A DNA stretch of 64,000 nucleotides from an uncultured delta proteobacterium. Its GTDB lineage: Bacteria > Myxococcota_A > Polyangia > Polyangiales > Polyangiaceae. Under the pieces are notes generated by a model. It worked only from the letters and a program-made list of their open reading frames with translations. It did not search any database and had not been told where the DNA came from. The stretch lies in the NCBI GenBank assembly GCA_963839305.1, contig CAWIUL010000011.1, forward strand, positions 2,633,561-2,697,560, given 5' to 3'. The position numbers and the translations under genes were made by a program. Positions within the stretch are counted from its first letter, which is position 1; every line of letters starts with the position of its first letter. Below, in pieces: positions 6,583-25,475 of the stretch.

Positions 6583-7100
6583 CGCACGTACTCGTCGAGC
6601 ACGTTCGCGGCGATGTCCGCGAGGATCCCGTCCGTCACGCGGAGGCGACGCGAGAGATCGCGCGCCACGTTGAGCACGACGATCGCGTACGATTTCACGT
6701 CGTGCCGATAGAGCGAGTCGAGATCTTCGGCCGCGATGCGGAGCAGGCGCGTGGGCGCGAGCGAGCGCACGGTCGCCGAGCGCGGCTGGACGTCGATGAT
6801 CGACATCTCGCCGAACGCGTCGCTCGGGCCGAGGATCGCGATGCGTTGCGTGCGGCCGCGACGGCTCTTCTTGAGCACTTCGACCTCGCCGTCGAGGACG
6901 ACGAACATGTCGTGGCCTTGATCGCCCTCTTGGAACACCGTGGCGCCCGGCGCGACGCGGCGCTGCTGGAGCATGCTCGCGAGGTGCGTGAGGACCTCAT
7001 CGGAGAGCGCGCCGAAGAGGCCGATTTCGCGCAGACGATCCGTCGTCGGGGGGCCGTCGACCGGCGCGGCGTTTGGCATGCGCGGCTGACTGCTACTCAT
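6579..7100 (-). CDS. Cyclic nucleotide-binding domain protein.
   Basis: cNMP-binding fold motifs (FQEGDQG..., FGEMS). The internal ATG at 7098-7100 was chosen because it overlaps the GNAT stop. The longer ORF to 7244 was rejected. Confidence 0.75.
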   Translation of the reverse strand: MSSSQPRMPNAAPVDGPPTTDRLREIGLFGALSDEVLTHLASMLQQRRVAPGATVFQEGDQGHDMFVVLDGEVEVLKKSRRGRTQRIAILGPSDAFGEMSIIDVQPRSATVRSLAPTRLLRIAAEDLDSLYRHDVKSYAIVVLNVARDLSRRLRVTDGILADIAANVLDEYVR

Positions 7101-9409: not shown

Positions 9410-9424
9410 TAAGGTCCCAAGACC

Positions 9425-11113
9425 GTGACGCACGAGAACGAGAAGAAAGACCCGCTCGCGTTCCTCAAGAGCGATCACGCGATCGGTTTGGGCATCGGCG
9501 TCGTGTACGTCGCGTGGCTCCTCTCGACCTCGCGCGAGCTCGGCTTTCCGCGCGACGAGGGCTTCTACTTCCACGCGGCCACAGACTACGCGCGCTGGTT
9601 CGACATGCTCTTCGAGCACCCGTCGCAAGCGTTCGACCGCGCGACCATCGACGGCATCTGGCAGGAGAACCACGAGCACCCCGCGCTGATGAAGAGCCTC
9701 TTCGCGCTCTCGTGGCACTTCTTCTACGAGAAGTGGCACTGGTTCAAGGACGCGAGCACGGCATTCCGCTTTCCCGGCATGGTGATGGGGGGCCTTTCGC
9801 TCTACGTGACGTACCTCTTCGGCGCGCGCGCGTTCTCTCGGCGCGCGGGCGCGCTCGCCGCGGTGCTCCTCGGCTGCATGCCCGCGGTGTTCTTCAACGC
9901 GCACCTCGCGTGCTTCGACGCGCCCATCATGACGATGTGGCTGCTCAGCGTGTTCGTGTACTGGCAGTCGATCAAGCGCGGCGGCCTCGGGTGGGCGATC
10001 GCGGCGGGCGTCGTCTACGGGCTCACGCTCGAGACGAAGCACAACGCGTGGATCATGCCGGCGGTGTTCTTGCCGCACGCGCTCTTCGTGATGCGAAAGC
10101 CGATCGCGCGCGAGGTCCGCGTCGGTCGCCTTCCGCTACCGACGAGCATTCTCTCGATGGCGATCCTCGGGCCGCTCACGTTCTGGGCGCTCTGGCCGTG
10201 GATGTGGAACGACACGCTGCCGCGAGTTCAGGAGTACCTGAACTTCCACATGAACCACGTCTATTACAACATCGAGTACCTCCACAAAAACTACTTCGGG
10301 CCGCCTTCGCCGCGCTCGTACGCGCCGGTGCTCATCTTCGCGACCGTTCCGACGACGACGATCGCGCTCTTCCTCGTGGGCGCGTTCGATCGACTTCGCG
10401 TCCTCGCGCTGCGCCTCTACGCGGCGGTTCGAAAGCAGGCGGGCGCCGTATCCGGCGACCGCGCGGAGACCGATCTGCTCCTCTTCCTCGCGCTCTCTGC
10501 GCCGCTCGCCGTGTTCGTGCTGCTCTCGAAGACGCCGATTTTCGGCGGCACGAAGCACTGGCTACCCGCGTATCCGTTCCTCGCGCTCTTCGCGGGACGC
10601 GGGTTCGACGTGATCGGCGAGAAGGTCATCGCGGCGATCGATCGCATCAAGACCGACGCGCAGCGCACGGGCGCGTGGGCGGCGCTGTTCGCGCTCCTCG
10701 CCCTTCCGCCCGCGATCATCACGCGGCACTCCGACGTCTACGGGCTCGCGACGTACATGCCGTTCGTCGGCGGAAACCAGGGCGGCGCGGACCTCGGGCT
10801 GAACCGGCAATTCTGGGGTTACACGACCGAGCAGCTCGAGCCGTACTTCGAGAAGAACGCGCCGCCGCGCGCGACGGTGTTCATCCACGACACCGCGTGG
10901 GACTCCTGGGGCCGCATGCAGGCGGAGCACCGCATCCGCCCCGATTTGCAGGCCGTGGGCTCGCCGGGCGAGGCGATGTTCGGCATCGTCCACCACGAGC
11001 TCCACATGAGCGAGGTCGACTATCAGGAGTGGATCGCGTTCAACACCGACGCGCCCGACTACGTGCTCACGCACGACGGCGTGCCGATCATCTCGGTGTA
11101 CCGCCGCAGGTGA
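9425..11113 (+). CDS. Glycosyltransferase family 39 (ArnT / PMT-like) membrane protein.
   Basis: Many TM helices, a DEG-containing first loop and the PMT_2-type topology. Confidence 0.8.
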   Translation: MTHENEKKDPLAFLKSDHAIGLGIGVVYVAWLLSTSRELGFPRDEGFYFHAATDYARWFDMLFEHPSQAFDRATIDGIWQENHEHPALMKSLFALSWHFFYEKWHWFKDASTAFRFPGMVMGGLSLYVTYLFGARAFSRRAGALAAVLLGCMPAVFFNAHLACFDAPIMTMWLLSVFVYWQSIKRGGLGWAIAAGVVYGLTLETKHNAWIMPAVFLPHALFVMRKPIAREVRVGRLPLPTSILSMAILGPLTFWALWPWMWNDTLPRVQEYLNFHMNHVYYNIEYLHKNYFGPPSPRSYAPVLIFATVPTTTIALFLVGAFDRLRVLALRLYAAVRKQAGAVSGDRAETDLLLFLALSAPLAVFVLLSKTPIFGGTKHWLPAYPFLALFAGRGFDVIGEKVIAAIDRIKTDAQRTGAWAALFALLALPPAIITRHSDVYGLATYMPFVGGNQGGADLGLNRQFWGYTTEQLEPYFEKNAPPRATVFIHDTAWDSWGRMQAEHRIRPDLQAVGSPGEAMFGIVHHELHMSEVDYQEWIAFNTDAPDYVLTHDGVPIISVYRRR

Positions 11114-11568
11114 GTTGCTTCGTGGGCGAGGAGCCACTTCTTTCGCGGGACGCCGCCCGCGTAACCGACGAGCGCGCCGCTCGAGCCGATGATGCGATGG
11201 CACGGGACGATGATCGCGATCGGGTTCTTGCCGTTCGCCGCGCCCACGGCGCGCGAGGCTGACGGGTTTTTGATCGCGCGCGCGATCTCGCCGTAGCTCG
11301 CGGTGCGCCCGAAGCCGATCGTGACGAGCGCCTTCCACACGCGCGCCTGGAACGGCGTGCCGCGCGGCGCGAGCCGAAGATCGAACCGCACGCGCTCGCC
11401 TGCGAAGTATTCATCGAGCTGCTTCGTCTCTTCGGTGAACGCTCGCGCGTCGCGTCTTCCGTCGATCGCGGGCACGAGCCCTTCGAGGTACGCGCCCGTG
11501 AGCGCGTCTTGGTCCTTGGTGAGGGTGATCGTCCCAACGGGGCTCGCGTATTCGAAGGACCAACTCAT
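11059..11568 (-). CDS. ogt: Methylated-DNA--protein-cysteine methyltransferase.
   Basis: Active site PCHRII, HTH-like helix ARAIKNP...AVGAANGKNP. ATG at 11566-11568 overlaps the TGA of ada/alkA. Confidence 0.9.
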   Translation of the reverse strand: MSWSFEYASPVGTITLTKDQDALTGAYLEGLVPAIDGRRDARAFTEETKQLDEYFAGERVRFDLRLAPRGTPFQARVWKALVTIGFGRTASYGEIARAIKNPSASRAVGAANGKNPIAIIVPCHRIIGSSGALVGYAGGVPRKKWLLAHEATHLRRYTEMIGTPSCVST

Positions 11569-13019
11569 GATTTTCTCCAGAGGTGCATCGCCGCGTAGGC
11601 GCGCCATGGGCTCCAAGCGGCTGCGCGCTCGCGTAGCGCGCCGGCCGAGAGATCGAGCGCGCGTGCGAGCGCGAGGTCGCCGAACGGAAACGCGTCGGGC
11701 GCTCGGAGCGCTCGCATCGCGACGTACTGCGAGGTCCACGGGCCGATGCCCGCGATGGTCGCGATCGACTCGTCGCACGCGTCGCGCGCGGCGAGCGCGC
11801 GGAGAGCTGCGGCGCGCACGGGCGTGATGCCCACGGCGCAGAGCTCTCGCTGCGAAGCGCTCGCGAGACGCGCGCGCGTCGGGAACGCGAGCGAGAGCTC
11901 CGCGTGCGGCGTCGCCACCGGCTCGCCCAAGGCGCGCGCGAGGCGCCCCGCCAGCGTCGTCGCGCCGCGCACCGTGACCTGTTGACCGAGGACCGCGCGC
12001 GACGCGAGCTCGAACGCGTCGAATCCTCCGGGGACGCGCAAGCCTGGCGCCGCGCGCACGAGCGGACGAAGCGCCGGATCGCGCGCGAGGTGCGCGTCGA
12101 TCGCGTCGGGTCGCGCGTCCAGGTCGAACGCCGCGCGCGCGGACGACGCGATGCCCATGAGCGAGCGCGCGAGCGACGTGCTCACGTCGACGTTCACGAC
12201 TCGCCGCGCGTCATCGAGCGACGCGACGACGAACCCCGCGCGCTCGCCGATCCGCAGCGTGCGCGAGTACGTGAGCCGCTCGAGATCGACGTGCTCTACG
12301 CCGGGCGTCGCGCGGAGGGCCAGGAACTCGAGCATCGGTCGCCACGCGAGCGGCGCGCGATAACCGAGCGCGATGCGCACGACGTCGTTCGCGGACGCGC
12401 TGCGCCGCCGGCGCATCTCGGAGGGCGCGCGGCCGAAGCGATCGCGAAACGCCGCGTTGAAGCGCCGCACGCTCGAGAATCCGCTCGCGTGCGCCACGTC
12501 GACGATCGCGCCCGAGCCGTCTTGAAGGAGCTGCTTGGCGAGCGCGAGCCGCGCGGAGAGCGCGATTTGGACGGGCGACAGCCCCATCTCGCGCTCGAGC
12601 GCTCGCCGCACGTGGCGCCCCGTGACGCCGAGCTCGGCCGCGAGCTCCTCGAGCGATCCGTCGTTGAGCGCGCCCGCCTCGATGCGCGCCGCGGCCGTGC
12701 GCGCGAGCGCCGAGACCGCGTCGACGTTCGAGTGGCCTGGCGCGAGCTCGGGCCGGCAGCGGAAGCACGCGCGAAAGCCGTCCCGCTCGGCCTCCGCAGC
12801 GCGACGAAAGAACACGCACCGCGAGCGCGCCGCGAGCCGCGCGGTGCAAACCGGACGGCAATAGATCCCGGTCGTCGTGACCCCGACGAAGAAGATCCCA
12901 TCGAAGCGCGCGTCACGCGCGACGAGGGCTCTGTATCGGGCGTCGTCGCTGAGGCCGTTCACGACACTCGAGTTAACGCAGCGCGCGCGTTTCGTCTGGC
13001 CGTTTTCGGACCTCGACAC
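11565..13019 (-). CDS. ada: Ada-type regulatory protein fused to a DNA-3-methyladenine glycosylase II (AlkA) domain.
   Basis: N-terminal Ada Zn-binding Cys cluster (CRPVC...C), AraC-type HTH, C-terminal HhH-GPD glycosylase domain. Confidence 0.85.
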   Translation of the reverse strand: MSRSENGQTKRARCVNSSVVNGLSDDARYRALVARDARFDGIFFVGVTTTGIYCRPVCTARLAARSRCVFFRRAAEAERDGFRACFRCRPELAPGHSNVDAVSALARTAAARIEAGALNDGSLEELAAELGVTGRHVRRALEREMGLSPVQIALSARLALAKQLLQDGSGAIVDVAHASGFSSVRRFNAAFRDRFGRAPSEMRRRRSASANDVVRIALGYRAPLAWRPMLEFLALRATPGVEHVDLERLTYSRTLRIGERAGFVVASLDDARRVVNVDVSTSLARSLMGIASSARAAFDLDARPDAIDAHLARDPALRPLVRAAPGLRVPGGFDAFELASRAVLGQQVTVRGATTLAGRLARALGEPVATPHAELSLAFPTRARLASASQRELCAVGITPVRAAALRALAARDACDESIATIAGIGPWTSQYVAMRALRAPDAFPFGDLALARALDLSAGALRERAAAWSPWRAYAAMHLWRKS

Positions 13020-13025
13020 CAGAAA

Positions 13026-14678
13026 TCAGCCGCGCGCGGCGCGCTCGAGCTCGAAATAGAACGAGACGAGGTCGCTCTCGCGCGACCCTTGCTGGAAGAA
13101 GCGGTAAACGCGCCCGATCGGCCACACGCGCGTCGTCGGGGGCACCATCATCGACCAGCGGCCCGGCTCGTCGCCCTCGGTCTCGATCCACTGCGCGCCG
13201 AGGCGGCGCGCGAGGATCTCGCTGAGCAGCGCGCCGTGACGCGTCAGCTCGGTCTCGAGCATGCGCGCTTGGCGCTCGTCGCGCTTGGCGTCACCGAACC
13301 TACGCCGCAGGTGGCGCTGCATCGCCTCGATAGCGACCGGATCGGTCTTGAGCGTCGTCCCGTACGAGAGGCGGTAGTCGCGCGCGAGCTCTCGCGCGAG
13401 CTCGGTCATCTTCGCGCGCGCCGCGTCGCCCTCTGGGATGGCCATCGTCTCGACGACCTCGGCCCCCGAGCGCGCTCCTCCTTCGATGCTCGGCATCGCC
13501 GGCGCGCGCGGGATCGCTTGAGCGGGCGGGAGCGACGCGCCCGCGGGCGCCGCCGCGGGACGATCGCTGATCACGACGTCCGGCGGCCGGAGCGACGCCG
13601 CGGGCGGCGGCCGCATCGACTCGTTGGTCTTCGCGGTCGACTCGAGGATCTCGACCGCGGAGATGCGCGCGCCCGATCCCGCGACGGGGTCCTCGGTCAC
13701 GCGGCGCGCGAAATACCGCGCGTACGCGATCTCGCCGCTCGCGAGCCACGCGCGCGCGGCGAGCACCGCGAGCTCGGACTCGGGTTTGTCACCGCCGGCC
13801 ATCGCGGTGAGAAAGTGCGCGACCTCGCGCAAGCGCGTCTCGCCGTGGAGCATCGCCGAGTGCGCTCGGAGCTCGTCGATGAGCGGCGCGGGCGCGTGCT
13901 CCGCGTGCTCGTCCGCGACGATCATGTCGGGGAGCGCAGCCGCTTGCACCGGGTTCGACGGCGGGCGACGCGACAGCGCGGAGGCGAGCGCGTGGAGGCG
14001 CGGACGCTCTCGGCTCAGCGCGGCCCGCGCGCGCAAATCCGTCACGACGTCCGCGTCCACCTCGGCCTCGTTCGCGGCTCGCCTCGCGTCGATCGGCCGC
14101 TTCGTGAGCGCGAGCGCGTGCGGGAGGTCCTCGATGGCGTCGACGGTCATCCGTCGCCACGTTCGCTGGTTCGCCTTCGTGCGATCGGGGTCGGTCAAGA
14201 GGCGCACGGGGGTGTCGTCGGGCACCTCCGCGAGGACCATCGCGAGGTGCACGAGCTGCAGCGCGAACGCACCGCGTTCCATCGGGCACGCGTCGGCGAT
14301 CGCCCCAAGGTCGAGCCAGGTCCCTCCGTAGTGACGCGCGGTCGCATCGTAGACGCCACCCTGAAACGCCTCGCACGGACCGAGCTGCGACGCGACGCGC
14401 ATGATCGCCGCCGTACGCGCGAGGCTTTCACACGGCCCGAGCGATCGAAACGCCGCGCGCGCGAGCTCCGTCGTCGCACCTGCTCGAACGAGACGATCGC
14501 GCGCGATTGACGCGGTCGTCAGATACCCCTGCTCGCGCACGCCCACGCCCCCAGAAGGCGCCGCGAGGAGCACCTCGGACGCGTCGAAGAGCGCGTACTC
14601 GATCTCGAGCACCCCTTCGGATCGTGCAACGACCCAGTCACCCACGACGAGGCTCGTAGCCACTGCTGGCCATGCTAC
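13026..14678 (-). CDS. Hypothetical protein; start uncertain.
   Basis: Long minus-strand ORF with coding-like composition. The 5' part of the 692-aa ORF overlaps the PilZ gene on the opposite strand and is probably not translated. No recognised domain. Confidence 0.4.
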   Translation of the reverse strand, partial: VAWPAVATSLVVGDWVVARSEGVLEIEYALFDASEVLLAAPSGGVGVREQGYLTTASIARDRLVRAGATTELARAAFRSLGPCESLARTAAIMRVASQLGPCEAFQGGVYDATARHYGGTWLDLGAIADACPMERGAFALQLVHLAMVLAEVPDDTPVRLLTDPDRTKANQRTWRRMTVDAIEDLPHALALTKRPIDARRAANEAEVDADVVTDLRARAALSRERPRLHALASALSRRPPSNPVQAAALPDMIVADEHAEHAPAPLIDELRAHSAMLHGETRLREVAHFLTAMAGGDKPESELAVLAARAWLASGEIAYARYFARRVTEDPVAGSGARISAVEILESTAKTNESMRPPPAASLRPPDVVISDRPAAAPAGASLPPAQAIPRAPAMPSIEGGARSGAEVVETMAIPEGDAARAKMTELARELARDYRLSYGTTLKTDPVAIEAMQRHLRRRFGDAKRDERQARMLETELTRHGALLSEILARRLGAQWIETEGDEPGRWSMMVPPTTRVWPIGRVYRFFQQGSRESDLVSFYFELERAARG

Positions 14679-14756
14679 TCCGAAGCGCTCGTTCGTCGAA
14701 ACAAGGCGCTGGCGTGGCCGAGCCGCAGGCGTATCCTCGATGTTCGGAGGTAGTCG

Positions 14757-15083
14757 ATGGAGGAACGCCGTCAATTTCGACGACTGCAAGTTCCCGTCTA
14801 CTGCCGCGCAGCCGGCATGGAGGTGATGACGCGTCGTCACCCGATCGACTTGAGCCTCGGCGGCGTTCGTATCTACAGCGATCAGCGCTTCGCCAAAGGC
14901 GAGCTTTTGACCCTCGAGCTCATGACCGTCGATGCCCCCGCGAGCACCTTCACCGCCGAGGTCATGTGGATCGAAGACCTCCCAGCTGGATCCCCCGCTC
15001 TGTACGATGTTGGCCTGAGATTCCGCAGCGTTGACCCCACCCAGGCCACCGCGCTGGAGCGGATGTTGGCGAAATCCGAGTAG
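14757..15083 (+). CDS. PilZ domain protein.
   Basis: PilZ c-di-GMP-binding motifs RRQFRR and DLSLGGVRIY. 108 aa. Confidence 0.8.
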   Translation: MEERRQFRRLQVPVYCRAAGMEVMTRRHPIDLSLGGVRIYSDQRFAKGELLTLELMTVDAPASTFTAEVMWIEDLPAGSPALYDVGLRFRSVDPTQATALERMLAKSE

Positions 15084-15177
15084 TTTCGACCACATCGCAC
15101 CCACGAAAACATTTCGGCACCTCGGAGTACAAGGTGGGATAGGTTGTCATGGGCTTTGCATCAGCCTCCCTACTAAG

Positions 15178-16551
15178 ATGTCCCTCTCCCGTCGTACCTG
15201 GCAGAACATCAACTTGATCGGTGACTGCCTGCTGCTGTTTCTCGCAGCCAGCGCAGCGACCGTCTTCCCTGGCGGCATCCACTGGATGGTCGCCCTCGGC
15301 ATGGCCACCGGCGCGATGTTGCTGTGGATTGTCGGCAGCCGTGTGCTTCGGCATTACGACATCGGAAACGGCCGCGGAATCCCGGGCGATGTGGCGCTCA
15401 CGCTCGTCTTGCTCTTCGCCACGGTCGTGCCGATGTTCGCGCTCCGCTACATGGTGCCGCGCTACGCGGCCGTCGCGGACATGACGCGCTTCGTGACCGT
15501 GTTCGTGATGGGCGTCGTGTGGCTTCGCCTCTTGACGAGCTGGCTCAAGACGCGCCCGCCGCAGCCGCCCGAGGAGATTTTGATCGTCGGTGTCGGCCCG
15601 CTCGGACGTCACACGGGTCTCGAGATTCATGCGCAAAAGCGCAACCGACGCGTGACCGGTTATCTCCGCTTGGTCGACGAGCCGGAGCACAAGCGTTTGC
15701 CCGCGGGCATCTTCGGCATGGTCGACGAGCTCGAGAACGTGCTGAAGACGCACGTCGTCCACGAGGTTTACCTCGCGAGCAGCGAGGAGACGCACCGCGC
15801 GCAGATCCAAGAGGCGATCCGCGTCTGCGAGCGCTTCGGGATCCCGTTCGCGCTTCCGGCGAACCGCTTCCGCATCGCGCGCGCCGAGCCGCGCGATCGC
15901 GCCGCGCTGGGCGACGGCTACGTCCACTACCTGTCGTTCCGCCACAAGCCGGTGCAGCTGCTGCTGAAGCGCGCGTTCGACATTTTCGCGTCGAGCGTCG
16001 CGATCGCGCTGCTCTCGCCGATCTTCATCGGCGTGGCCATCGCGATCAAGCTCTCGTCGAAGGGCCCTGTGCTCTTTCGCCAGCCGCGCGTCGGTCGCTA
16101 CGGGCGCATGTTCAACATGCTCAAGTTCCGCTCGATGGTCGTGAACGCCGAGGAGCTCAAGGCGAAGCTCATGGCGCAGAACGAGCAGACCGGCCCGGTC
16201 TTCAAGATGACGCGCGACCCGCGCGTGACGGGCATCGGGCGCTTCATTCGCAAGTACTCCATCGACGAGCTGCCGCAATTCATCAACGTGCTGCGTGGCG
16301 AGATGACCATCGTCGGGCCGCGCCCGCCGGTTCCGAGCGAGGTCGCTCAGTACGAAGCGTGGCAGCGCCGCCGTCTTTCCGTGCGCCCCGGCATCACTTG
16401 CGTGTGGCAAGTGAGCGGACGGAACCAAATCGGCTTCGAGGAGTGGATGTATTTGGACATGCAATACATCGACAACTGGAGCATCACGCAGGATTTCCAG
16501 TTGATTTTCAAGACCGTGCCGGTCGTGCTCTTCGGCAAGGGCGCGAGCTGA
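15178..16551 (+). CDS. Polyprenyl-phosphate glycosyl-1-phosphate transferase (WbaP/EpsZ-like initiating enzyme).
   Basis: Five N-terminal TM segments. C-terminal bacterial sugar transferase domain (KFRSM, DELPQFINVLRGEMTIVGPRP). Start chosen at ATG 15178. Confidence 0.9.
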   Translation: MSLSRRTWQNINLIGDCLLLFLAASAATVFPGGIHWMVALGMATGAMLLWIVGSRVLRHYDIGNGRGIPGDVALTLVLLFATVVPMFALRYMVPRYAAVADMTRFVTVFVMGVVWLRLLTSWLKTRPPQPPEEILIVGVGPLGRHTGLEIHAQKRNRRVTGYLRLVDEPEHKRLPAGIFGMVDELENVLKTHVVHEVYLASSEETHRAQIQEAIRVCERFGIPFALPANRFRIARAEPRDRAALGDGYVHYLSFRHKPVQLLLKRAFDIFASSVAIALLSPIFIGVAIAIKLSSKGPVLFRQPRVGRYGRMFNMLKFRSMVVNAEELKAKLMAQNEQTGPVFKMTRDPRVTGIGRFIRKYSIDELPQFINVLRGEMTIVGPRPPVPSEVAQYEAWQRRRLSVRPGITCVWQVSGRNQIGFEEWMYLDMQYIDNWSITQDFQLIFKTVPVVLFGKGAS

Positions 16552-16602
16552 TCCGCAGCGCGTCTGTCCGCGGCGCGGTGTTTGCTCTACACCTGGGTGG
16601 AT

Positions 16603-17028
16603 ATGCCCATGGCCCGACGTGTCGTTCTCGTCGTCGAAGACGAACCCCTCCAGCGTGAACGTGTGAAGCTCTGGCTCGAGTCGGAGAAGTTCGATGTCGA
16701 GTGCGCTTCCGAGTACAGCTCGGCGCTCAAGGCGCTCGACAAGACGATCCCCGCCATCGCGTGCGTCGACCTGACGCTCCCGCGAGAGTCCGGTTTGGAC
16801 CTCGTGGAGGCGATCCGCAAGCACACCAAGGGCACTGCGGTGCCGATCATCGTGATGAGCGAGCGGCACTCGCCCGAGGACATGGCCGAGGCCGAGCGCG
16901 TCGGCGCGAACGCGTTCTTGAAGAAGCCGTTCGCGAGGCCGCTGCTCCTCAAGTACGTGCGGTGGATTCTCGACGGCCCCCACGCGAGCTCTCCGAGCAT
17001 CCGCGGGCTACGTCGCGTCGAGGGCTGA
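16603..17028 (+). CDS. Single-domain response regulator (receiver).
   Basis: VVLVVEDE...D...VDLTLP...K receiver motifs. Confidence 0.8.
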   Translation: MPMARRVVLVVEDEPLQRERVKLWLESEKFDVECASEYSSALKALDKTIPAIACVDLTLPRESGLDLVEAIRKHTKGTAVPIIVMSERHSPEDMAEAERVGANAFLKKPFARPLLLKYVRWILDGPHASSPSIRGLRRVEG

Positions 17029-17064: not shown

Positions 17065-17826
17065 TCACGTTACCCTCTTGCTTGGTCCGCCGCGCATCTG
17101 GCGCAAGACCACGAGCGCGAACTCGGGATCACGCAGCAGATAGCGGCGCCAGAGACGCTTCGGCTCGCGGCCGAGCCGGTAGAGCCACTCGAGCCCTGCG
17201 CGCGACATCCACTGCGGCGCGCGCGGGACCACGCCCGCGAGGAAGTCAATCGTCGCGCCGACGCCGAGGAGCACCGCGGGCTTCACGCGCTCGGCGACGG
17301 CGTAGGCGAAGAGCTCCTGCTTGGGCGCGCCGAGGCCGACGAGCACGAGGTCCGGCTCGGCGCGCGCGATCGTCTCCGCGAGCTCGCGGTGCGCGTCGAG
17401 CGACGCGCTCGCCCGCACACGCGGAGACGAAAAACCTGCGACGCGAATATGTCGCTCCTCGAGCGCGCAACTTGCACGCTGTGCGCTGCCCTCGTGGCCG
17501 CCGAGGAGGTACACGCGCCAGCCGCGTTCCGCTGCGCGTTCGAGCAAGGCCGGCACGAGATCCGAGCCGGATATCTTCTCGGGCAGCGGCTCGCGTAGCG
17601 CGCGCGAAGCCCACAAGACGGGCATCCCGTCGACGACCGAGAGGCTCGCGTGCTCGTAGGCCTCGCGAAAAGCCACGTCGTGCTCGGCCATGACGACGTG
17701 GTCCACGTTCGGCGTGAACACAGTGCCGCCAGTCTTGTCGTCGATCATGCGCTCGATGGCCGCGAGGGCGTCGGCGAAGGTCACACGATCGATGGGCAGG
17801 CTTCCGATTCGAACCCGATCCTTCAC
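17065..17826 (-). CDS. WecB/TagA/CpsF family glycosyltransferase.
   Basis: Family-typical full-length sequence. GTG start overlaps the stop of the upstream gene (GTGA). Confidence 0.85.
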   Translation of the reverse strand: MKDRVRIGSLPIDRVTFADALAAIERMIDDKTGGTVFTPNVDHVVMAEHDVAFREAYEHASLSVVDGMPVLWASRALREPLPEKISGSDLVPALLERAAERGWRVYLLGGHEGSAQRASCALEERHIRVAGFSSPRVRASASLDAHRELAETIARAEPDLVLVGLGAPKQELFAYAVAERVKPAVLLGVGATIDFLAGVVPRAPQWMSRAGLEWLYRLGREPKRLWRRYLLRDPEFALVVLRQMRGGPSKRVT

Positions 17827-19460
17827 GATGGAGCGGAGTCTTTCTTGTGCAAAGACCCGGCCACGCGCTGCGTCACGCGTGGGTGGACTTCGGCATCGGG
17901 CGCGCTCACGAGCGAGCCCGGCGGGACGTCGTCGCGGACCACGCAGCTCGCCATGATCTTCGAGTCTTCGCCGATCGTGATCGGTCCGAGGAGCGTCGCG
18001 CCCGGTCCGATGTGGACGTTGCGGCCAACGTTCGGCGCGCCGGTCGCAGATCGGCCGGAGGCGGCCTGCGCAGCCGTGGATGCCGACTCGCCGAGCGTGA
18101 CGTTGTGAAAGAGGATCGCGTCTTTCCCGACGCGGGCCTTCGGCGAGATCGCGAGGCCCATGCCGTGGACGATCTGCACGCCGGGCTCGATCTGCGCGTC
18201 CCAGTGGATGTCGGAGCCGTAGAGGTGGCGGATGAGGCGCGACGTGATCATCGCGAGCGGCGTCGCGCCCGCGTCGCGGAAGAAGTGCATGAGCCTCACG
18301 GCGACCATGATCTGGAAGCCGATTCGGACGACCGCGTCGCGCGGAAGATCGCCCTCGTCGCCGTCGCGGCCGCCGTATTTCGCGCCGTAGTGGCGGAGCG
18401 TCGCGTGGTCCTGGCGGACTGCCTCGCGCAGCTGGCTCGCCGCGACGAGCGTTCGTTCCGTGCGCGACGCGGGGCCCGCGCGGCGCGCGTAGTCGAGCCA
18501 GTCGGTGATCGCGTTGCCGATCGCGCCCGCCTCGGCGCGCATGCCGCGCGCGTACTCGAGCCCGAAGACGAGCGTCATGCCGCGGAGCGCCGCGCGCTCG
18601 AGGCCCGCGCGCTCGAGCCGCGACGCGAGCGCGACGGCGGCGGTCGCGAGCTTCTCACCCGCGCCGGGCGCCGCCAGCGAGAGGACGAGGAGCGGTCGCG
18701 AGAGCGACGAGAGCTCGCGGAAATAGCGCCACGGGCTCGCGTGCGGCGCGTCGGGGTGCTTCTTGCCGATTCGCGAGTCGAACGTGCCGTACGCCTTCGC
18801 GCGCTTGCGAAAACCCGCGAGGCTGTCGCGGTCGGACGAGTGGATGCTCGCCGCGACGTCGCTCAGGTAGAACGTCGCGCCGTTCTTCTCGAGGCGCACG
18901 CCGAGCTCGGCGTCCTCGGAGTGGCCTAGCGTCGCGTCGAAGCCGCCCGCGCGGAGGTACGCGTCGCGCTTCATCGAGAGGTTGCCCGTGTAGACGTTGG
19001 GCCCGCGAAACGTCACCTTGCCCGAGATCACGTCGTTCGCGAAGCGCTCGAGGACGTCCGCGTGGAAGCGCTCGAAGAGCTCGAGCTTCATCTCGGGGTC
19101 CGGCTTGATGCGACCGAGCACGACCGCGTTCGGATCGCGATCGTGGATCGCGAGGTGCGCGGCGACGAGGCCCTCGTGGACCTGCATGTCGTCGTCGAGG
19201 AAGAGGATCACCGGGCCGCGCGCGCGTGTGACGCCACGGTGTCGCGCGGCCGCGGCTCCCGCGTTCTCTTGGCGCTCGACGACGAGCGTGAACGGGACGT
19301 CGAGGGCGCGGAGGCGCGGCGTCGGATCCTCGCGCGAGCCATCGTCGATGATCACGACCTCGAGATCGCTCGCGACCGTCTGCGCGGCGAGCTGGCGCAC
19401 GAGGCGCTCGATCGAGGCGCCGCGGTTGTAGGTCGCAACGACGATGGAGGCGCGTATCAC
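17823..19460 (-). CDS. Family 2 glycosyltransferase fused to a C-terminal serine-acetyltransferase-like hexapeptide domain.
   Basis: N-terminal GT-A fold (SIVVATYNRG, DDGS, DDD). The C-terminus resembles CysE: helical region plus a left-handed beta-helix with GVQIVHGMGLAI...G. No stop between the two domains. GTG start with GGAGG 9 nt upstream. GTGA overlap. Confidence 0.75.
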   Translation of the reverse strand: MIRASIVVATYNRGASIERLVRQLAAQTVASDLEVVIIDDGSREDPTPRLRALDVPFTLVVERQENAGAAAARHRGVTRARGPVILFLDDDMQVHEGLVAAHLAIHDRDPNAVVLGRIKPDPEMKLELFERFHADVLERFANDVISGKVTFRGPNVYTGNLSMKRDAYLRAGGFDATLGHSEDAELGVRLEKNGATFYLSDVAASIHSSDRDSLAGFRKRAKAYGTFDSRIGKKHPDAPHASPWRYFRELSSLSRPLLVLSLAAPGAGEKLATAAVALASRLERAGLERAALRGMTLVFGLEYARGMRAEAGAIGNAITDWLDYARRAGPASRTERTLVAASQLREAVRQDHATLRHYGAKYGGRDGDEGDLPRDAVVRIGFQIMVAVRLMHFFRDAGATPLAMITSRLIRHLYGSDIHWDAQIEPGVQIVHGMGLAISPKARVGKDAILFHNVTLGESASTAAQAASGRSATGAPNVGRNVHIGPGATLLGPITIGEDSKIMASCVVRDDVPPGSLVSAPDAEVHPRVTQRVAGSLHKKDSAPS

Positions 19461-19990
19461 GTCTTGACGCCTCCTCGCGCCGGCATCTTCACGGTCTGAT
19501 GAGCGGGATCGGGCGCCTTCGCCGTCGCTTCGCTCGGGGCGGGCTGCGCGACCTTCGCGCGTGACTTCTTGCGCGCGAGGATCGTCCCCACGAATTTGTC
19601 GTGGCCGATCTCTTCGACGGTCTTCACTGCGGCCTTCATCGGCGTCTCGCCGAGGCGCACGACGAGCACCGCGGTGTCCGCTCCCTTCGCGAGCGCGATC
19701 GAAGTCGGGTTCTGCTGGATGGACGCGAGCGCGATGATCACGCAGTCGCCCTTCTTCACGTGCTCGTCGATTTCCTTCTTGTGGTAGTCGACGAGGCGCA
19801 TCGTGATGTCGCGCAGATCGAGCACGACGGTGGGCTCGCCGCGGTATTGCCACGCGACCTCGGCGATCGCGCTCGCGACGTCGAGTGACGCGATTTGGCG
19901 CATCGTGGGTACGACGGCGAGCACGCGCCACGTCTTCTTCTGCAGCGCGAGCCAGAGGCTTTGGAGCTCGAATTCTGCTTCGGGGGTCAC
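19457..19990 (-). CDS. Degenerate BY-kinase-like (ParA/MinD-fold) domain protein lacking the Walker A motif.
   Basis: Fold-like pattern VLAVVPTMRQIASLDVASA...VVLDLRD in place of the PGEGKST P-loop. GTG start overlapping the GT2 stop. Lies between a GT2 and the PCP gene, the position typical for the Wzc kinase half. Confidence 0.55.
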   Translation of the reverse strand: MTPEAEFELQSLWLALQKKTWRVLAVVPTMRQIASLDVASAIAEVAWQYRGEPTVVLDLRDITMRLVDYHKKEIDEHVKKGDCVIIALASIQQNPTSIALAKGADTAVLVVRLGETPMKAAVKTVEEIGHDKFVGTILARKKSRAKVAQPAPSEATAKAPDPAHQTVKMPARGGVKT

Positions 19991-21198
19991 TTCGCGGCCT
20001 TCTCCCTCGTCGTACGAACCCACGTGCTCGGTCGGTCCGACGCGGCCAGTCCGAGCTTCCAGACGACGTACACCGGCGCCCACGCGAGGTCGAGCGCTGC
20101 CCGCGGCCCGAGCCGCGTGAGCTGAACACCACGGAAGACGTACGCGCCGACCATGGCGCCCGCGACGGTCCACGGGATCCACGCGACCGGGCGCGAGCCG
20201 GTCGCGATCGCGAGGGCTGCCGTGATCGCGGACGCGCCGAGGCCGAGTACGATCGAAACACCGAGCTTCGAGAGCGGCGGCGTCAGGAGATCGGCGCCGA
20301 GGTCGAACAGCATCGCGTTGCGCTCGACGATACCGCGCTTCAAGAGGCGCCAGCCGTGCTTGTCCGTGAGCTCGCGGCGGCCTTCTTCCCAGCGTTGCCG
20401 CTGCGAGCGCGCGGCCTTGCCCGTCGAGACCATCTCGCCGAGCACCGCGGCCTCGCCCACGTACGCGACGCGATGGCCCGCTTCGCCGAGGCGAATGCCG
20501 TACTCGACGTCCTCGACGATCGAGAACGCGTCGTGAGGGACCTCTCGGAGGACGCTGCACGCGAAGCCCATCCCGTTTCCGCGCAGGCCGCACGAGACAC
20601 CGAGTCGCTCGCGCGCGTTCGAGCGCACCACGTGGAAGAGCGACATCGCGATGACCATGAGCCGCGTGCGCCAAGAGGCCTCCGGGTTTCGCACGCCGTA
20701 CTCGGCTTGCACGGCGACCTCGCCCGCGGAGAAGCGCGCGGCGAACGCCATGAGCAGGTTCTTCGTGACGCGCGTGTCAGCGTCGACCACGACGACGGCG
20801 TCGGCGTGACCTCGAGCGAGCGCCTCTTCGAACGCGCGCGCGAGCGCGTAGCCTTTGCCGCGTTTCTCCGCGTCGACGCGCTCGATCACCTCGGCGCCAG
20901 CCGCTCGTGCGCGAGACGCGGTGGCGTCGCTGCAGTTGTCCGCGACGACCACGACGCGAAAGCGATCGCGCGGATAGTCCACGGCGAGCAGGCTCGCGAC
21001 GGTCTCGGCGATGTTCGCCTCCTCGTCGTGCGCGGGGACGATCACGTCGAAGTACGGGCGCTTGCCGTTCGCCTTGGGCGCCGCCTTCGGCTTCGACAGC
21101 GCGGTGAGCGCGCCGAGGTAGCCGGACGCGGCGAGCGTGGGGAGTGACGCCGCGGCTACCGCGCCGTCGAGGAGCCGAAAGGCGGTCCGGAGTCTCAC
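19987..21198 (-). CDS. Family 2 glycosyltransferase, membrane-anchored.
   Basis: DVIVPAHDEE, VVVADNCSD, VVVDAD, QRQRWEEG (QxxRW), C-terminal TM helices. GTG at 21198 overlaps the PCP stop. An alternative ATG lies at 21249. Confidence 0.8.
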   Translation of the reverse strand: MRLRTAFRLLDGAVAAASLPTLAASGYLGALTALSKPKAAPKANGKRPYFDVIVPAHDEEANIAETVASLLAVDYPRDRFRVVVVADNCSDATASRARAAGAEVIERVDAEKRGKGYALARAFEEALARGHADAVVVVDADTRVTKNLLMAFAARFSAGEVAVQAEYGVRNPEASWRTRLMVIAMSLFHVVRSNARERLGVSCGLRGNGMGFACSVLREVPHDAFSIVEDVEYGIRLGEAGHRVAYVGEAAVLGEMVSTGKAARSQRQRWEEGRRELTDKHGWRLLKRGIVERNAMLFDLGADLLTPPLSKLGVSIVLGLGASAITAALAIATGSRPVAWIPWTVAGAMVGAYVFRGVQLTRLGPRAALDLAWAPVYVVWKLGLAASDRPSTWVRTTREKAAK

Positions 21199-22676
21199 GT
21201 CTCGAGCTCCCCCAGGATCGGCAACTTGAGCTTCCGCTCGACCTGCCACGGTTCGACGATGACCCCGAGGCGCCGCTCGCGCAGCACGACGCCGCCGAAC
21301 GCGAAGACGAAGATCGCGAACGCGATGCCCAAGAAGAGCGCGATCGGGTTGGGGTTACGCGGGCGCCTCGTGACCTCGGCGGGGTGGACGATGCTGAAGC
21401 GGTATTTGTGCGCCGTCTTCGCGATGTCGAGCTCGATCTGCGCGCCGTCGATGCGGTTCTCGAGATCCGCGTATTTCTGGGCGCATTGCTGCAATTTCAT
21501 CTGCGCGACGGTGACCGCGGGATCCTCCTCCATGATGAGCCGCGAGCTCGGCGAACCCGTGAGCGCGGCGATCGTCGCGGCGGACGAGTGCGTCGTCGAC
21601 GCCGCGGCGATCGCGGTCGCGAGCGGCGGCGCGTTCACGGCCACCTTGTCGATGAGCGCGCGCTCCTCGTTGCGCAGGCGCGCGAGGTCCGGCGGCTCGG
21701 CCTGAGCCTCCACGAGCTTCTGCTTGAGCGCGACGACCGTCGGGTGCTCGGGCCTGTACTGAACGAGCGCGTCCGAGAGCTGCTTGTTCAGCTCGTTGAT
21801 GCGCTGCGTGCGCTGCGACTCGACCTGTTGGATCTCGTTGCGCTTGTCCTGGAGCGCTTGGAGGAGCGCGGGATCGACGGCCGGCGCGTTGGCGCTTGCC
21901 TTCGGCGCGGGCGGCGCCATGAAGCGCGGCTGAGCGACCGCGTTGTTCGCCTTCGCCGCCGGTTTCTTCTTCATCTCCAGCGACTCGAACTCGTCGCGCG
22001 CCTCGTCGAAATGCGACTTCTCCTCTTTCGCGTGCTGCTGCAGAATGTCGATCGCGTCGTTGATGACGCTGATCTCCGCGTCGTAGCGCGCGTCGATGAA
22101 GTTCTTCTCGACCGCGGAAGCGAGGTCATACGCCATCTGCGCGTCGGTCCACTCCGCGGTGATCGTGATCGTCGTGTCGTCGCTCGTGACGGTGAGCCGC
22201 TTCTCGAGCACTCCTTCGATCGCTCGCATCCGGTCTTGCTCATCCGGCCGTCCCGCGAGCTTCTCGGTGACGCGATCCCTCCAACGGAGGAGGGTCGGCC
22301 GCGACCCCGCCCACCGGTCGACGAGGTTCACTTGCTTGATGAGCCCGACGAGGTTGTCGTGCTGGAGGATCGTGTCGCCGACGTTCTTCGTGGGGTTGTC
22401 GGCCTCGCGCGGGACGGTGCGGTTCGGGTTTCCGAGCGCGGGGAGCACCAGGTTGCGCTGCGCGAGGATTTTCACCTCGGTCGAATACGTCCGCGGGTAG
22501 AGGACGAACAGCGCACCGCCCAGACCGAGCGACAGCACGAGGAGGGCGATGAACCTGTACGGGTTCCTCCTCGGAGCGCGCAGCACGTAGCCGACGAAGT
22601 CGGAGATGGCGTGTAGGTCAAGCCCCTCCTCTTCCTCCTCGTCTTCGTGCCGATTGTGATCTTCGCCTTTGGGCAT
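21195..22676 (-). CDS. Polysaccharide co-polymerase (Wzz/Wzc periplasmic domain) protein without a kinase domain.
   Basis: N- and C-terminal TM helices flank a long coiled-coil periplasmic region. Acidic N-terminus. Ends right after the second TM. Confidence 0.8.
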   Translation of the reverse strand: MPKGEDHNRHEDEEEEEGLDLHAISDFVGYVLRAPRRNPYRFIALLVLSLGLGGALFVLYPRTYSTEVKILAQRNLVLPALGNPNRTVPREADNPTKNVGDTILQHDNLVGLIKQVNLVDRWAGSRPTLLRWRDRVTEKLAGRPDEQDRMRAIEGVLEKRLTVTSDDTTITITAEWTDAQMAYDLASAVEKNFIDARYDAEISVINDAIDILQQHAKEEKSHFDEARDEFESLEMKKKPAAKANNAVAQPRFMAPPAPKASANAPAVDPALLQALQDKRNEIQQVESQRTQRINELNKQLSDALVQYRPEHPTVVALKQKLVEAQAEPPDLARLRNEERALIDKVAVNAPPLATAIAAASTTHSSAATIAALTGSPSSRLIMEEDPAVTVAQMKLQQCAQKYADLENRIDGAQIELDIAKTAHKYRFSIVHPAEVTRRPRNPNPIALFLGIAFAIFVFAFGGVVLRERRLGVIVEPWQVERKLKLPILGELET

Positions 22677-22742: not shown

Positions 22743-23159
22743 ATGTACGCCGCAGTCGGTTTCGACCTCGTCGACGTACGTGAGGTGCAAGACTCTATCG
22801 ATCGCTTCGGTGAGCGATACCTCACGCGCGTCTACACGCCAGCGGAGATTGAGTACGCGATGAGCGCGCCCGATCGCGCGACGGCAGCGCGCAGGCTGGG
22901 GGCGCGCTTCGCTGCCAAGGAAGCCACGATCAAAGCGCTCGGCGCGAGCGAGCGGGGCATTAGTCCTCGCGAGATCGAGGTCGCGAGGAGTGCTGACGGC
23001 GCGATCCGGATCATCTTGCACGGTCCGGCATTTGCTGCAGCTCGGGAAGTGGGTGCAACGGCGTTCGTCGTCAGTGTGTCGCATCAAGGCGATTTGGCGG
23101 GCGCAGTCGTAGTCATGGAGAAAAAGCCGACGAGTCGAATCAGGTGGAAGAAGAAATGA
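22743..23159 (+). CDS. 4'-phosphopantetheinyl transferase (AcpS-type).
   Basis: AVGFDLVDVREV...RF...EA..KA.G. AcpS-size (138 aa). Confidence 0.8.
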   Translation: MYAAVGFDLVDVREVQDSIDRFGERYLTRVYTPAEIEYAMSAPDRATAARRLGARFAAKEATIKALGASERGISPREIEVARSADGAIRIILHGPAFAAAREVGATAFVVSVSHQGDLAGAVVVMEKKPTSRIRWKKK

Positions 23160-23404
23160 ACGATCGCATTCGGACGATTTTGAAGGAACACGGACGCCTC
23201 GCTGTGGAAATATCGACACTCGCCGACGACGCGGACTTATACGAAGCGGGAATGACCTCGCACGCGAGCGTCAACGTGATGCTCGCCCTCGAAGGCGCGT
23301 TCGACGTGGAGTTCCCCGACCGCATGCTTCGGCGCGGCGTCTTCGAGAGCGTCGTGGCGATCGCCACCGCGCTGAACGAGCTCACCCAAGGGAAGGCATC
23401 ATGA
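23156..23404 (+). CDS. Acyl/aminoacyl carrier protein.
   Basis: About 82 aa with a four-helix pattern. Ser in DLYEAGMTSHASVNVMLALE. The ATG at 23156 overlaps the PPTase TGA. Confidence 0.75.
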   Translation: MNDRIRTILKEHGRLAVEISTLADDADLYEAGMTSHASVNVMLALEGAFDVEFPDRMLRRGVFESVVAIATALNELTQGKAS

Positions 23405-24561
23405 GCGAAACAGTCGAGCTGGTCGCGCGGATTGGCCGTGAGGTCGCCGCGCCGAACGCTGATTCAGTCGATCGAGAGGCCCGCTTTCCGACCGAAGCGA
23501 TCGACGCGCTGAAGAAGGCGAAGCTGATGAGCACGCTCGTGCCGCGCGCCCTCGGCGGTCACGGCACCGGGATGATCGAGCTCGCCGCGATGTGCGAGGC
23601 CCTCGGCCAGCACTGCGCGTCGACGGCGATGGTCTTCGCGATGCACCACATCCAAGTGGCGAGCATCCTCCGCCACGCGATGAAGCAGCCGTATTACGAG
23701 CGCTACGTCGCGGAGCTCGTCGAGAAGCAGCCGCTCATCGCGTCGGCGACGAGCGAGGTCGGCATCGGCGGCGAGATGCGGACGAGCCGCTGCGCCGTGG
23801 TCCGCGACGAGGACGCGCGGTTCAAGCTCGACAAGGACTGCTCGACGATCTCGTACGGCGCCCAGGCCGACGACATCTTGTTCCAGGCTCGGCGCGGGCC
23901 GGACTCGCCGCCGAACGATCAGATCTTCGTCCTCGTGCGAAAGCCCGAGTGCACGCTCACGCAGAAGGGCAACTGGGACACGCTCGGCATGCGCGGGACG
24001 TGCAGCCCGCCGTTCATGCTCGAATCGAGCGGCGAGGTCGGTCAGATCTTCGACACGCCGTTCTCCGACGTCGCGAGCGAGACGCAGGTGCCGTTCAGCC
24101 ACGTGCTCTGGTCGAACGTGTGGCTCGGGATCGCCACGGCCGCCGTCGGCCGGGCGCGCGCGTTCGTGAGGCAGCAAGCGCGCGCGAAGCCCGGCACCGT
24201 GCCGCCCACCGCGCTCCGCCTCGCGGAGGCCTCGAGCATGCTCCAGACGATGCGCACCAACGTGCACGACGTCGCGAGCGAGTGCGACCGCTTGATGCAC
24301 GACGACAAAGAGGGCACCGCCGCGCTCTCGTCGATCGGGTTCGCGCTCAAGATGAACAACCTGAAGGTGAGCTCGTCGCAGCTCGTCGTTCAGATCGTGA
24401 ACCATGCGCTCTCGATCTGCGGGATCATGGGCTACAAGAACGACTCGAAGGTGTCCGTCGGACGCCACCTGCGCGACGCGCACTCCGCCGCGCTCATGGT
24501 CGGAAATGACCGCATCTTCGCGACCAACGCGTCGATGCTCCTCGTTCTCAAAGACGATTGA
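23401..24561 (+). CDS. Acyl-CoA / acyl-ACP dehydrogenase family protein (FkbI-like).
   Basis: Full-length ACAD fold. ATGA overlap with the carrier-protein gene. Confidence 0.8.
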   Translation: MSETVELVARIGREVAAPNADSVDREARFPTEAIDALKKAKLMSTLVPRALGGHGTGMIELAAMCEALGQHCASTAMVFAMHHIQVASILRHAMKQPYYERYVAELVEKQPLIASATSEVGIGGEMRTSRCAVVRDEDARFKLDKDCSTISYGAQADDILFQARRGPDSPPNDQIFVLVRKPECTLTQKGNWDTLGMRGTCSPPFMLESSGEVGQIFDTPFSDVASETQVPFSHVLWSNVWLGIATAAVGRARAFVRQQARAKPGTVPPTALRLAEASSMLQTMRTNVHDVASECDRLMHDDKEGTAALSSIGFALKMNNLKVSSSQLVVQIVNHALSICGIMGYKNDSKVSVGRHLRDAHSAALMVGNDRIFATNASMLLVLKDD

Positions 24562-24569
24562 GGCAAACC

Positions 24570-25475
24570 ATGTCGTACTCGCCGCAGGAGCTCTACGAAG
24601 GGCTCGTCTCGAACAGGTTGATCATCCCCGTCGGCGTGCAGGGCATCTTCGGGCGCGGCCCGGTGTTCGAGGAAGTCCTCGCGCGGTTCGACGACTACGT
24701 CTCGCGCGTCGCGAAGGACGACGGCGCGGAGAAGATGATGTTCCCGCCCACGCTCGACCGAAGGGTGTTCGAGAAGGTCGAGTACATGGACTCGTTCCCG
24801 CATTTGTCGGGCGTGATCTTCTCGTTCAAGGGGACCGAGCGTCAGGCGCTCGAGCTCGGCGCGAAGATCCACGCGGGCGAAAACTGGGACGGGCTCATGG
24901 CGTCGACGGAGTGCGTGCTCACGCCGGCCGCTTGTTATCCGGTCTATCCGAGCTTCGCGGGGACGGTGCCCGAGCAAGGTCGGCTCGTCGACATGCAAAA
25001 CTGGGTGTTCCGTCACGAGCCCTCGCCCGAGCCGACGCGCATGCAGGCGTTCCGCGTTCGCGAGTTCGTCCGCGTGGGAACGCCCGACGTGGTCCTCGCG
25101 TGGCGCGACATGTGGCTCGAGCGCGGGCTTCAAATCATGAAGTCGCTCGGGCTGCCCGCGAAGAGCGACGTCGCGAGCGATCCGTTCTTCGGCCGCGGCG
25201 GCAAGATGCTCGCTGCGAACCAGAAGAACGCGCGGCTCAAGTTCGAGGTGCTCGTGCCCGTCATCTCCGAGGAGAACCCGACGGCGCTCTGCTCGTTCAA
25301 CTGGCACCAAGAGCACTTCGGTCAGGTGTTCGACATCAAGACGACGGACGGCGCCGTCGCCAACACCGCGTGCCTCGGCTTCGGCATGGAGCGCGTGTGC
25401 ATGGCGCTCTTCAAGCACCACGGGTTCGATCCCGCGAAGTGGCCAGCCGAGGTGCGCGCGAAGCTCTGGCCATGA
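24570..25475 (+). CDS. Amino acid--[carrier protein] ligase: truncated class-II aaRS (atypical SerRS-like) catalytic core.
   Basis: Class II motif 2 (FRVREFVRVGT) and motif 3 (GFGMERVCMALF). Cys residues (ACYPVYP) resemble the Zn site of methanogen-type SerRS. No tRNA-binding domain. About 300 aa. Adjacent to the carrier protein and the PPTase. RBS GAGG upstream of the ATG at 24570. The track ORF begins with TTG at 24558. Confidence 0.7.
   Translation: MSYSPQELYEGLVSNRLIIPVGVQGIFGRGPVFEEVLARFDDYVSRVAKDDGAEKMMFPPTLDRRVFEKVEYMDSFPHLSGVIFSFKGTERQALELGAKIHAGENWDGLMASTECVLTPAACYPVYPSFAGTVPEQGRLVDMQNWVFRHEPSPEPTRMQAFRVREFVRVGTPDVVLAWRDMWLERGLQIMKSLGLPAKSDVASDPFFGRGGKMLAANQKNARLKFEVLVPVISEENPTALCSFNWHQEHFGQVFDIKTTDGAVANTACLGFGMERVCMALFKHHGFDPAKWPAEVRAKLWP

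Follow-up and report, generated by a model that had tools for sequence, protein, structure and literature searches.

The window analysed here is a 64,000-nucleotide (nt) stretch from the genome of an uncultured delta proteobacterium of the Polyangiaceae (NCBI GenBank assembly GCA_963839305.1, contig CAWIUL010000011.1, positions 2,633,561 to 2,697,560 of the forward strand), and all coordinates below refer to it. One reverse-strand gene at 17823..19460 encodes both a family 2 glycosyltransferase (GT2) resembling EpsD and an acetyltransferase module resembling CysE and EpsC. In Myxococcus xanthus, EpsD (MXAN_7448) is a GT2, one of the five glycosyltransferases of the Wzx/Wzy exopolysaccharide (EPS) pathway, and EpsC (MXAN_7449) is the serine O-acetyltransferase homologue of the eps locus. 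The window gene is a fused member of this known EpsD/EpsC pair with a divergent acetyltransferase subtype. The gene and its parts, given with the amino acids (aa) that they encode, are as follows.

17823..19460 (-), whole fusion gene including the stop codon, 545 aa, EpsD-like GT2 plus CysE/EpsC-like module.
18756..19460 (-), GT-A catalytic domain, aa 1-235, with the motifs DDGS (aa 39-42), DDD/DXD (aa 89-91, nt 19188-19196) and ED (aa 182-183).
18471..18755 (-), helical extension at the C-terminal end of the EpsD-type glycosyltransferase, aa 236-330, covered by the EpsD profile and by model helices 244-328.
18219..18470 (-), helices with which the acetyltransferase module begins, aa 331-414, with D351, Y362, the IGFQ...R389 helix and S407-R408-x-x-R411-H412.
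17901..18218 (-), left-handed beta-helix (hexapeptide) domain, aa 415-520, with the putative catalytic residues D417 (nt 18210-18212) and H432 (nt 18165-18167).
17826..17900 (-), C-terminal tail, aa 521-545, variable in alignments, predicted disordered, ending in ...HKKDSAPS with no terminal Ile.
19470..19474 (-), GGAGG ribosome-binding site, 9 nt 5' of the GTG at 19460, read directly from the sequence.

The initial annotation described a single open reading frame (ORF) without an internal stop, and this is borne out: 19460..17823 on the reverse strand, exactly the interval given there, holds 545 codons and zero internal stops, and the in-frame G+C content at third codon positions (GC3) stays at 0.82-1.00 in each 40-codon block, continuing unbroken across the domain junction. 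Read directly, the start is the GTG at 19460, which overlaps the upstream TGA as GTGA and whose position is shared by homologues in an alignment; at the other end, the stop TGA (17825-17823) overlaps the GTG of the downstream gene. The stop-to-stop frame extends over 20261..17823 (812 codons) and was rejected as the gene, its initial 267 codons being the upstream gene read out of frame and rich in Arg; this out-of-frame 5' stretch is free of stops because the DNA is ~69% G+C. Several strands and frames of the window hold such very long stop-free frames (812 codons here and 360 to 490 codons antisense to real genes), again because of the high G+C content, so that ORF length by itself is no evidence for a gene in this window.

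An AlphaFold2 model of the protein, built from 22 homologues with a predicted local distance difference test (pLDDT) score of 91 and a predicted template-modelling (pTM) score of 0.80, comprises a GT-A domain (aa 1-235), helices 244-328, a long helix 333-362, a short loop, helices 372-414, a beta-helix (aa ~415-520) and a disordered tail in which pLDDT is <50 for aa 533-545. Searches of solved structures returned no chain spanning both the GT2 and the acetyltransferase parts. The GT-A/GT2 domain named in the initial annotation is confirmed by Pfam (Glycos_transf_2, PF00535, aa 5-131, 83.1 bits against a cut-off of 23.3), by NCBIfam and by the predicted fold, which is that of the GT-A enzymes and has GT2 proteins among its structural matches. 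The NCBIfam EpsD profile (NF041875) aligns end to end, its positions 2-315 (of 325) matching aa 5-316, and split EpsD proteins terminate at the equivalent of the end of the helical extension (~aa 330). D39-D40-G41-S42, D89-D90-D91 and E182-D183 are invariant in 139/139 fused homologues, and with these motifs intact the GT2 half should be active. A membrane anchor formed by aa 244-330 was also considered and rejected: no 19-residue Kyte-Doolittle window is transmembrane-like, the maximum mean being 1.22 in the helical extension and 1.54 protein-wide, the latter inside the acetyltransferase helices.

The boundary between the modules was located with a library of representatives at 50% identity, queried with aa 341-545. 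This search returned many proteins of ~200-245 aa with proper N-termini, including P0127, which seeds a family of standalone 'serine O-acetyltransferases' with at least 119 clusters. The N-termini of 119 standalone homologues fall at aa 331-335 of the window protein; hence the acetyltransferase module starts at helix 333-362, which bears the invariant D351 and the conserved Y362, and the EpsD module ends at ~aa 330. The acetyltransferase module consists of four helices plus the beta-helix, a layout resembling the short CysE isoform of Oldham et al. (PMC13040420). Its hexapeptide repeats (Pfam Hexapep, aa 477-509, 37.6 bits against a cut-off of 27) and predicted fold belong to the left-handed beta-helix superfamily. 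The NCBIfam EpsC and cysE profiles both align to aa 378-520, and weak NCBIfam matches were found to NeuD/PglB/VioB (39.5 bits), WcaB (42 bits) and GlmU. The initial annotation had proposed a CysE-like helical domain followed by a left-handed beta-helix, to be recognized as Glycos_transf_2 plus SATase_N/Hexapep. Of this, Glycos_transf_2, Hexapep, the beta-helix and the CysE-like fold stand. The catalytic dyad is kept, whereas the helices are not SATase_N (PF06426), which was not detected in a Pfam search at E-values up to 1, and the serine-binding residues are gone. Only aa 380-414 of the helical part align to CysE, matching helices 7-8 (residues ~106-140) from the K-G-F-H motif. An Ala/Ser-rich insertion (STAAQAASGRSAT..., aa 459-473, 18042-18086 on the reverse strand) occupies an active-site loop of the beta-helix; it is lineage-specific, is missing in the 87%-identical homologue P0002 and coincides with lower model confidence.

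Alignment to the serine acetyltransferases of Escherichia coli, Salmonella and soybean equates D417 and H432 with Asp143 and His158, which in CysE form the general-base dyad (PMC9547175). Of the 139 fused proteins, 138 retain H432, as do 120/120 standalone ones; D occupies position 417 in 118 of the fused set and E in 20, and R408, R411, H412, D417, H419 and W420 around the dyad are nearly invariant in the family. Such conservation, together with the standalone module genes, which a pure scaffold leaves unexplained, argues against a catalytically dead beta-helix that only trimerizes the glycosyltransferase in the manner of the TarS and TarP C-terminal domains. That role would agree with the obligate trimers of beta-helix domains and with the trimeric GT2s TarP and TarS among the structural matches of the model, and we consider it very improbable.

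In CysE, serine or cysteine is bound by Asp92, Asp157, Arg192 and His193, and a C-terminal tail ending in Ile anchors in CysK (PMC9547175). Here, V431, G474 and A475, each conserved in the family, stand in place of Asp157, Arg192 and His193, the Asp92 segment is absent, and the CysK-binding C-terminal Ile is lacking from the fusion protein, whose tail is unconserved. CysE remains the closest solved family in both sequence and fold, the Asp/His pair is kept, and the Joint Genome Institute (JGI) name for such proteins includes 'serine acetyltransferase', but these replacements, a cysE score (TIGR01172, EC 2.3.1.30) of 91.2 bits against a cut-off of 210.65, and the constant location of the module fused to or beside polysaccharide genes leave little chance that it is a genuine serine O-acetyltransferase producing O-acetylserine. 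Judged by its residues, the module is instead an active-looking CysE-fold acetyltransferase with a non-serine acceptor, because the serine-binding residues are replaced or missing and there is no CysK tail.

As the module is permanently associated with EpsD, we infer by analogy that a sugar of the undecaprenyl-diphosphate-linked repeat unit is its most likely acceptor. Alternatively, it could acetylate a soluble precursor (a nucleotide sugar or amino sugar, on oxygen or nitrogen), in which case the fusion would merely co-localize precursor supply with the glycosyltransferase. Many beta-helix acetyltransferases use nucleotide sugars, NeuD/PglB/VioB and GlmU are among the weak profile matches, and the WecG/TagA family, to which the EpsA-like neighbour of the fusion gene belongs, typically transfers N-acetylated amino sugars; Perez-Burgos et al., moreover, write of 'O-acetylation of precursors', the precursors being unnamed. 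We regard a soluble precursor as rather unlikely and prefer the lipid-linked sugar as acceptor.

Joining of the two modules is widespread among relatives. A search of 5.8 billion proteins returned at least 120 clusters at 45-87% identity, nearly all with at least 93% query coverage, a length of 513-589 aa and GT2 plus Hexapep domains, the exceptions being two short fragments. In a scan of one genome per species that returned 142 relatives, of which the best 80 loci were kept, both parts lay in one frame in 80/80 loci with no stop between them in 79/80; an HW motif was one of the two scan patterns, so these best 80 over-represent fused forms of the DIHW subtype described below. As recorded, including labels of metagenome-assembled genomes (MAGs), the loci belong to Polyangiaceae, Labilithrix, Anaeromyxobacteraceae, Myxococcaceae and other Myxococcota, with ~9 from Gemmatimonadota, 3 from Acidobacteriota and 1 from Solirubrobacteraceae. 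The closest relatives among the matches listed (63-87% identity) are all fused. The initial annotation had suggested looking for the same fusion in related genomes and had named two-gene orthologues, with an indel having removed a stop from this copy, as the observation that would overturn it; the fusion is present as a single ORF in those 79 loci, and split forms occur in other lineages. An error in sequencing or assembly, or an indel that lately removed a stop, might be suspected from those split forms and from one MAG locus with a stop exactly at the junction. Given that all close relatives are fused, that the junction region carries residues conserved in the alignment and that GC3 is continuous across it, we consider the chance of an artefact negligible.

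In the interrupted locus (L051, a Myxococcales MAG, 6990-7005), a TGA stands at the position corresponding to aa 333, the module boundary, with a GTG directly after it and a GGAGG 5 nt upstream. From its sequence, this looks like a functional split rather than damage, and apparently shows that fused and split states are easily interconverted. A search with the glycosyltransferase half of a Myxococcaceae homologue recovered both states: EpsD is a split protein of 337-368 aa in Myxococcus, Corallococcus and Stigmatella, whereas Archangium and Aggregicoccus have fusions of 533-557 aa. In Myxococcus sp. K15C18031901 (L084), a 159-aa unnamed protein is followed by epsD (342 aa), a 5-nt gap, epsC (185 aa, in another frame), a GH44 gene (EpsB) and a WecG gene (EpsA), and in Archangium primigenium the order is Y-X-W-V-U-Wzy-unnamed protein, then a 533-aa fusion and GH44. 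The Archangium fusion (P0426) is collinear with the L084 pair, residues 22-350 being 68% identical to EpsD and 361-532 76% identical to EpsC, and exceeds both the EpsD and the EpsC NCBIfam cut-offs. Other arrangements include epsD followed 12 nt on by a standalone acetyltransferase gene of the DIHW kind (L086), an acetyltransferase nearby on the opposite strand (L087), and a standalone acetyltransferase between a small unnamed gene and GH44 with no adjoining epsD (L083). The occurrence elsewhere of separate D-then-C genes in the same order indicates that a single gene pair exists in either a fused or a split state, and that the copy in the window is no local accident. Fitch reconstruction on a neighbour-joining tree of the glycosyltransferase part (139 fused and 80 'split' proteins) gave at least 15 state changes, a figure to be taken as indicative only, since the tree lacks support and some of the short 'split' proteins, such as P0035, are probably contig-end fragments. 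The clade of the window protein itself is uniformly fused in this tree.

The acetyltransferase modules are of two subtypes. A 'SRLIRHLYGSDIHWDA...VHGMG' motif (DIHW subtype) is carried by the window protein, Aggregicoccus P0058, L083, L086, L051 and the P0127 family, and a '...GVEIGKD...VHSLG' motif (EIGK subtype) by Myxococcus EpsC, L087 and the Archangium fusion. The 139 fused proteins comprise 126 of the DIHW and 13 of the EIGK kind, and both subtypes are found fused and split. DIHW modules share the consensus S-R-x-x-R-H-x-Y-G-x-D-I-H-W with V/G/A at the CysE serine-binding positions, and are found either as EpsD fusions (in Myxococcota, Gemmatimonadota and Acidobacteriota) or as a standalone gene of 200-245 aa. 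Some metagenomic contigs (L081, 6001-10632, and L082) present a standalone DIHW acetyltransferase, then a GH44 hydrolase, then two hexapeptide-repeat proteins (385 aa and 182 aa), with no EpsD-like glycosyltransferase within 6 kb on either side.

The fusion gene lies in an eps-type cluster beside EpsA, its acetyltransferase being the C-terminal half of the same ORF. The neighbouring genes, whose matches to the Myxococcus eps models all fall under the equivalog cut-offs, are listed below.

17065..17826 (-), EpsA-like glycosyltransferase of the WecG/TagA family (NF041872 EpsA, 282 bits; TIGR00696, 134 bits against a cut-off of 69).
19457..19990 (-), 177-aa protein with no assigned family, directly upstream of the fusion gene.
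19987..21249 (-), EpsU-like GT2 (NF041865, 500 bits, below the cut-off of 700).
21195..22676 (-), EpsV-like polysaccharide co-polymerase (NF041864, 269 bits, below the cut-off of 800).
15031..16551 (+), EpsZ-like polyprenyl-phosphate hexose-1-phosphate transferase, the priming enzyme (NF041877, 559 bits, below cut-off; TIGR03025, 368 bits, above the cut-off of 295.55).
16582..17028 (+), EpsW-like single-domain response regulator (NF041866, 80 bits, below cut-off).

Overlaps of 4 nt (GTGA) at three consecutive junctions, between EpsU and the 177-aa protein, the 177-aa protein and the fusion gene, and the fusion gene and EpsA, point to co-translation. The order EpsV, EpsU, 177-aa protein, fusion gene and EpsA, with EpsW and EpsZ beyond, is preserved in the closest genomes (L001-L005). 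The 177-aa protein itself has no match in Pfam, NCBIfam or PDB sequences (profile search, E-values up to 10), and a single-sequence AlphaFold2 model of it (pLDDT 39.7) is too poor for use. Homologues of 159-222 aa lie directly upstream of epsD or its fused form in Myxococcus (L084, 6525-7004) and Archangium (L085, 6336-7004), another is present in L083 (5519-6004), and a homologue is directly upstream in 21/80 loci. With ~18 invariant columns in a four-sequence alignment, the protein is, as far as these alignments go, a conserved unnamed member of eps clusters.

Several further genes flank the locus. Beside EpsV, 22743-25475 (+) encodes a holo-acyl-carrier-protein synthase (AcpS), an acyl-CoA-dehydrogenase-like protein and an amino acid--[acyl-carrier-protein] ligase (NF005479, scoring 411 bits where the cut-off is 357); AcpS also adjoins EpsV in L001 and L002, and these genes may together provide a carrier-protein-dependent modification, aminoacyl or acyl, associated with the polysaccharide locus. 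A 692-aa ORF at 13026-15104 (-) has coding-like GC3, belongs to no Pfam or NCBIfam family and has homologues adjoining EpsZ in L001-L003 and L005. Upstream of the eps-like locus, and ordinary-looking, are a PMT_2/ArnT-like membrane glycosyltransferase (9413-11110, +) and an Ada-AlkA fusion regulator and DNA-repair protein (11568-13025, -).

The fusion protein is probably a bifunctional enzyme of a Wzx/Wzy-type exopolysaccharide pathway, in which an EpsD-type GT2 continues head-to-tail into an EpsC-like acetyltransferase. The GT2 part, acting at the cytoplasmic face of the inner membrane, would add one nucleotide-sugar-derived sugar to the undecaprenyl-diphosphate-linked unit begun by EpsZ, and the acetyltransferase part, with acetyl-CoA as donor and His432 as general base, would O-acetylate a hydroxyl of the added or a neighbouring sugar before Wzx flips the repeat unit. 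Beta-helix acyltransferases are trimers with active sites between subunits, and from this superfamily property the fusion protein would be expected to form a trimer bearing three copies of the GT2 domain. The two activities would be held side by side and in a 1:1 ratio by fusion or, where the genes are split, by translational coupling. The initial annotation's proposal that glycosyl transfer and O-acetylation are coupled in one polypeptide is one that we, too, infer from the architecture.

Several observations weigh against assigning this function. The EpsD score of 347.5 bits is below the equivalog cut-off of 370, which the relatives P0058 (405 bits) and P0426 (450 bits) pass, and the EpsC score (NF041874) of 104.1 bits is below the cut-off of 150, the same model giving 210 bits for Myxococcus EpsC and 194 for the Archangium fusion. 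The acetyltransferase module is 26% identical to Myxococcus EpsC, compared with 45% for the glycosyltransferase halves, so functional equivalence to EpsC is not assured by sequence. The window ORFs scanned to both sides of the locus yielded no Wzx, Wzy or outer-membrane polysaccharide export (OPX) gene. The acceptor, the acetylated position and even the acyl donor are deductions; no paper was found on the fusion or on a characterized member of the family, fused or split; and the structure of M. xanthus EPS is not known, hence there is no proof that it bears O-acetyl groups.

A more specific reading is conceivable and is put forward tentatively: DIHW modules may constitute a distinct subfamily of CysE-like beta-helix acyltransferases that has its own acceptor site and works in an obligatory trimeric complex with EpsD, channelling the lipid-linked unit from glycosylation to acetylation. 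If so, it would provide a concrete role for M. xanthus EpsC and possibly for the always-adjacent protein of 160-220 aa. The architecture is abundant in public databases but auto-annotated only, as 'serine acetyltransferase/GT2 family glycosyltransferase' by JGI and, for some members, as 'EpsD' by NCBI. As a 'Rosetta stone', the fusion argues that EpsD and EpsC work jointly on one intermediate and that the name 'serine O-acetyltransferase' is misleading for EpsC-like proteins. It also allows glycosylation and acetylation to be tested jointly within one polypeptide, and marks a well-conserved acetyltransferase subtype and a conserved neighbour gene in eps-like clusters of several soil phyla. Little changes beyond polysaccharide biosynthesis, and fusions of adjacent pathway genes are common.

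Known systems offer partial likenesses and close counterparts. In the E. coli wca cluster, WcaB and WcaF are CysE/LacA-like beta-helix O-acetyltransferases encoded among the glycosyltransferases, including the GT2 WcaA, of a Wzx/Wzy pathway (PMC6801904). These are separate genes, unlike the window fusion, and provide a functional analogy for acetylation of a repeat unit. WcaB and WcaF reportedly act on lipid-linked intermediates. GlmU, to which the fusion protein has partial structural and sequence matches, likewise joins an N-terminal nucleotide-sugar-binding alpha/beta domain through a helical linker to a C-terminal trimeric beta-helix acetyltransferase; the analogy is architectural only, GlmU being a uridylyltransferase rather than a GT2 and an N-acetyltransferase acting on soluble substrates. 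The short CysE isoform is not fused to a glycosyltransferase, whereas the window module lacks equivalents of Asp92, Asp157, Arg192 and His193 and lies in a polysaccharide operon.

A close parallel is M. xanthus, where epsD and epsC mutants affect EPS and EpsC is proposed to O-acetylate EPS precursors (PMC7484181). Myxococcus EpsD and EpsC present the same two modules in the same order (L084), in a locus of the same type (EpsZ, W, V, U and A) and with the same small upstream gene. They differ in being two genes in different frames, where the window has one polypeptide, in the GH44/EpsB gene of their operon, which is missing from the window operon, and in their 'VEIGKD' module, where the window protein has the 'SRLIRHLYGSDIHWDA' subtype. 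The same fused architecture and length, within eps-like clusters, are found in the 533-aa 'EpsD' proteins of Archangium primigenium and A. lansingense (P0426 and P0429) and in Aggregicoccus P0058; Aggregicoccus has the DIHW module of the window protein, whereas the Archangium fusion has the Myxococcus type of EpsC module. This fused architecture, length and setting are shared by the hundreds of proteins that databases list as 'serine acetyltransferase/GT2 family glycosyltransferase'.

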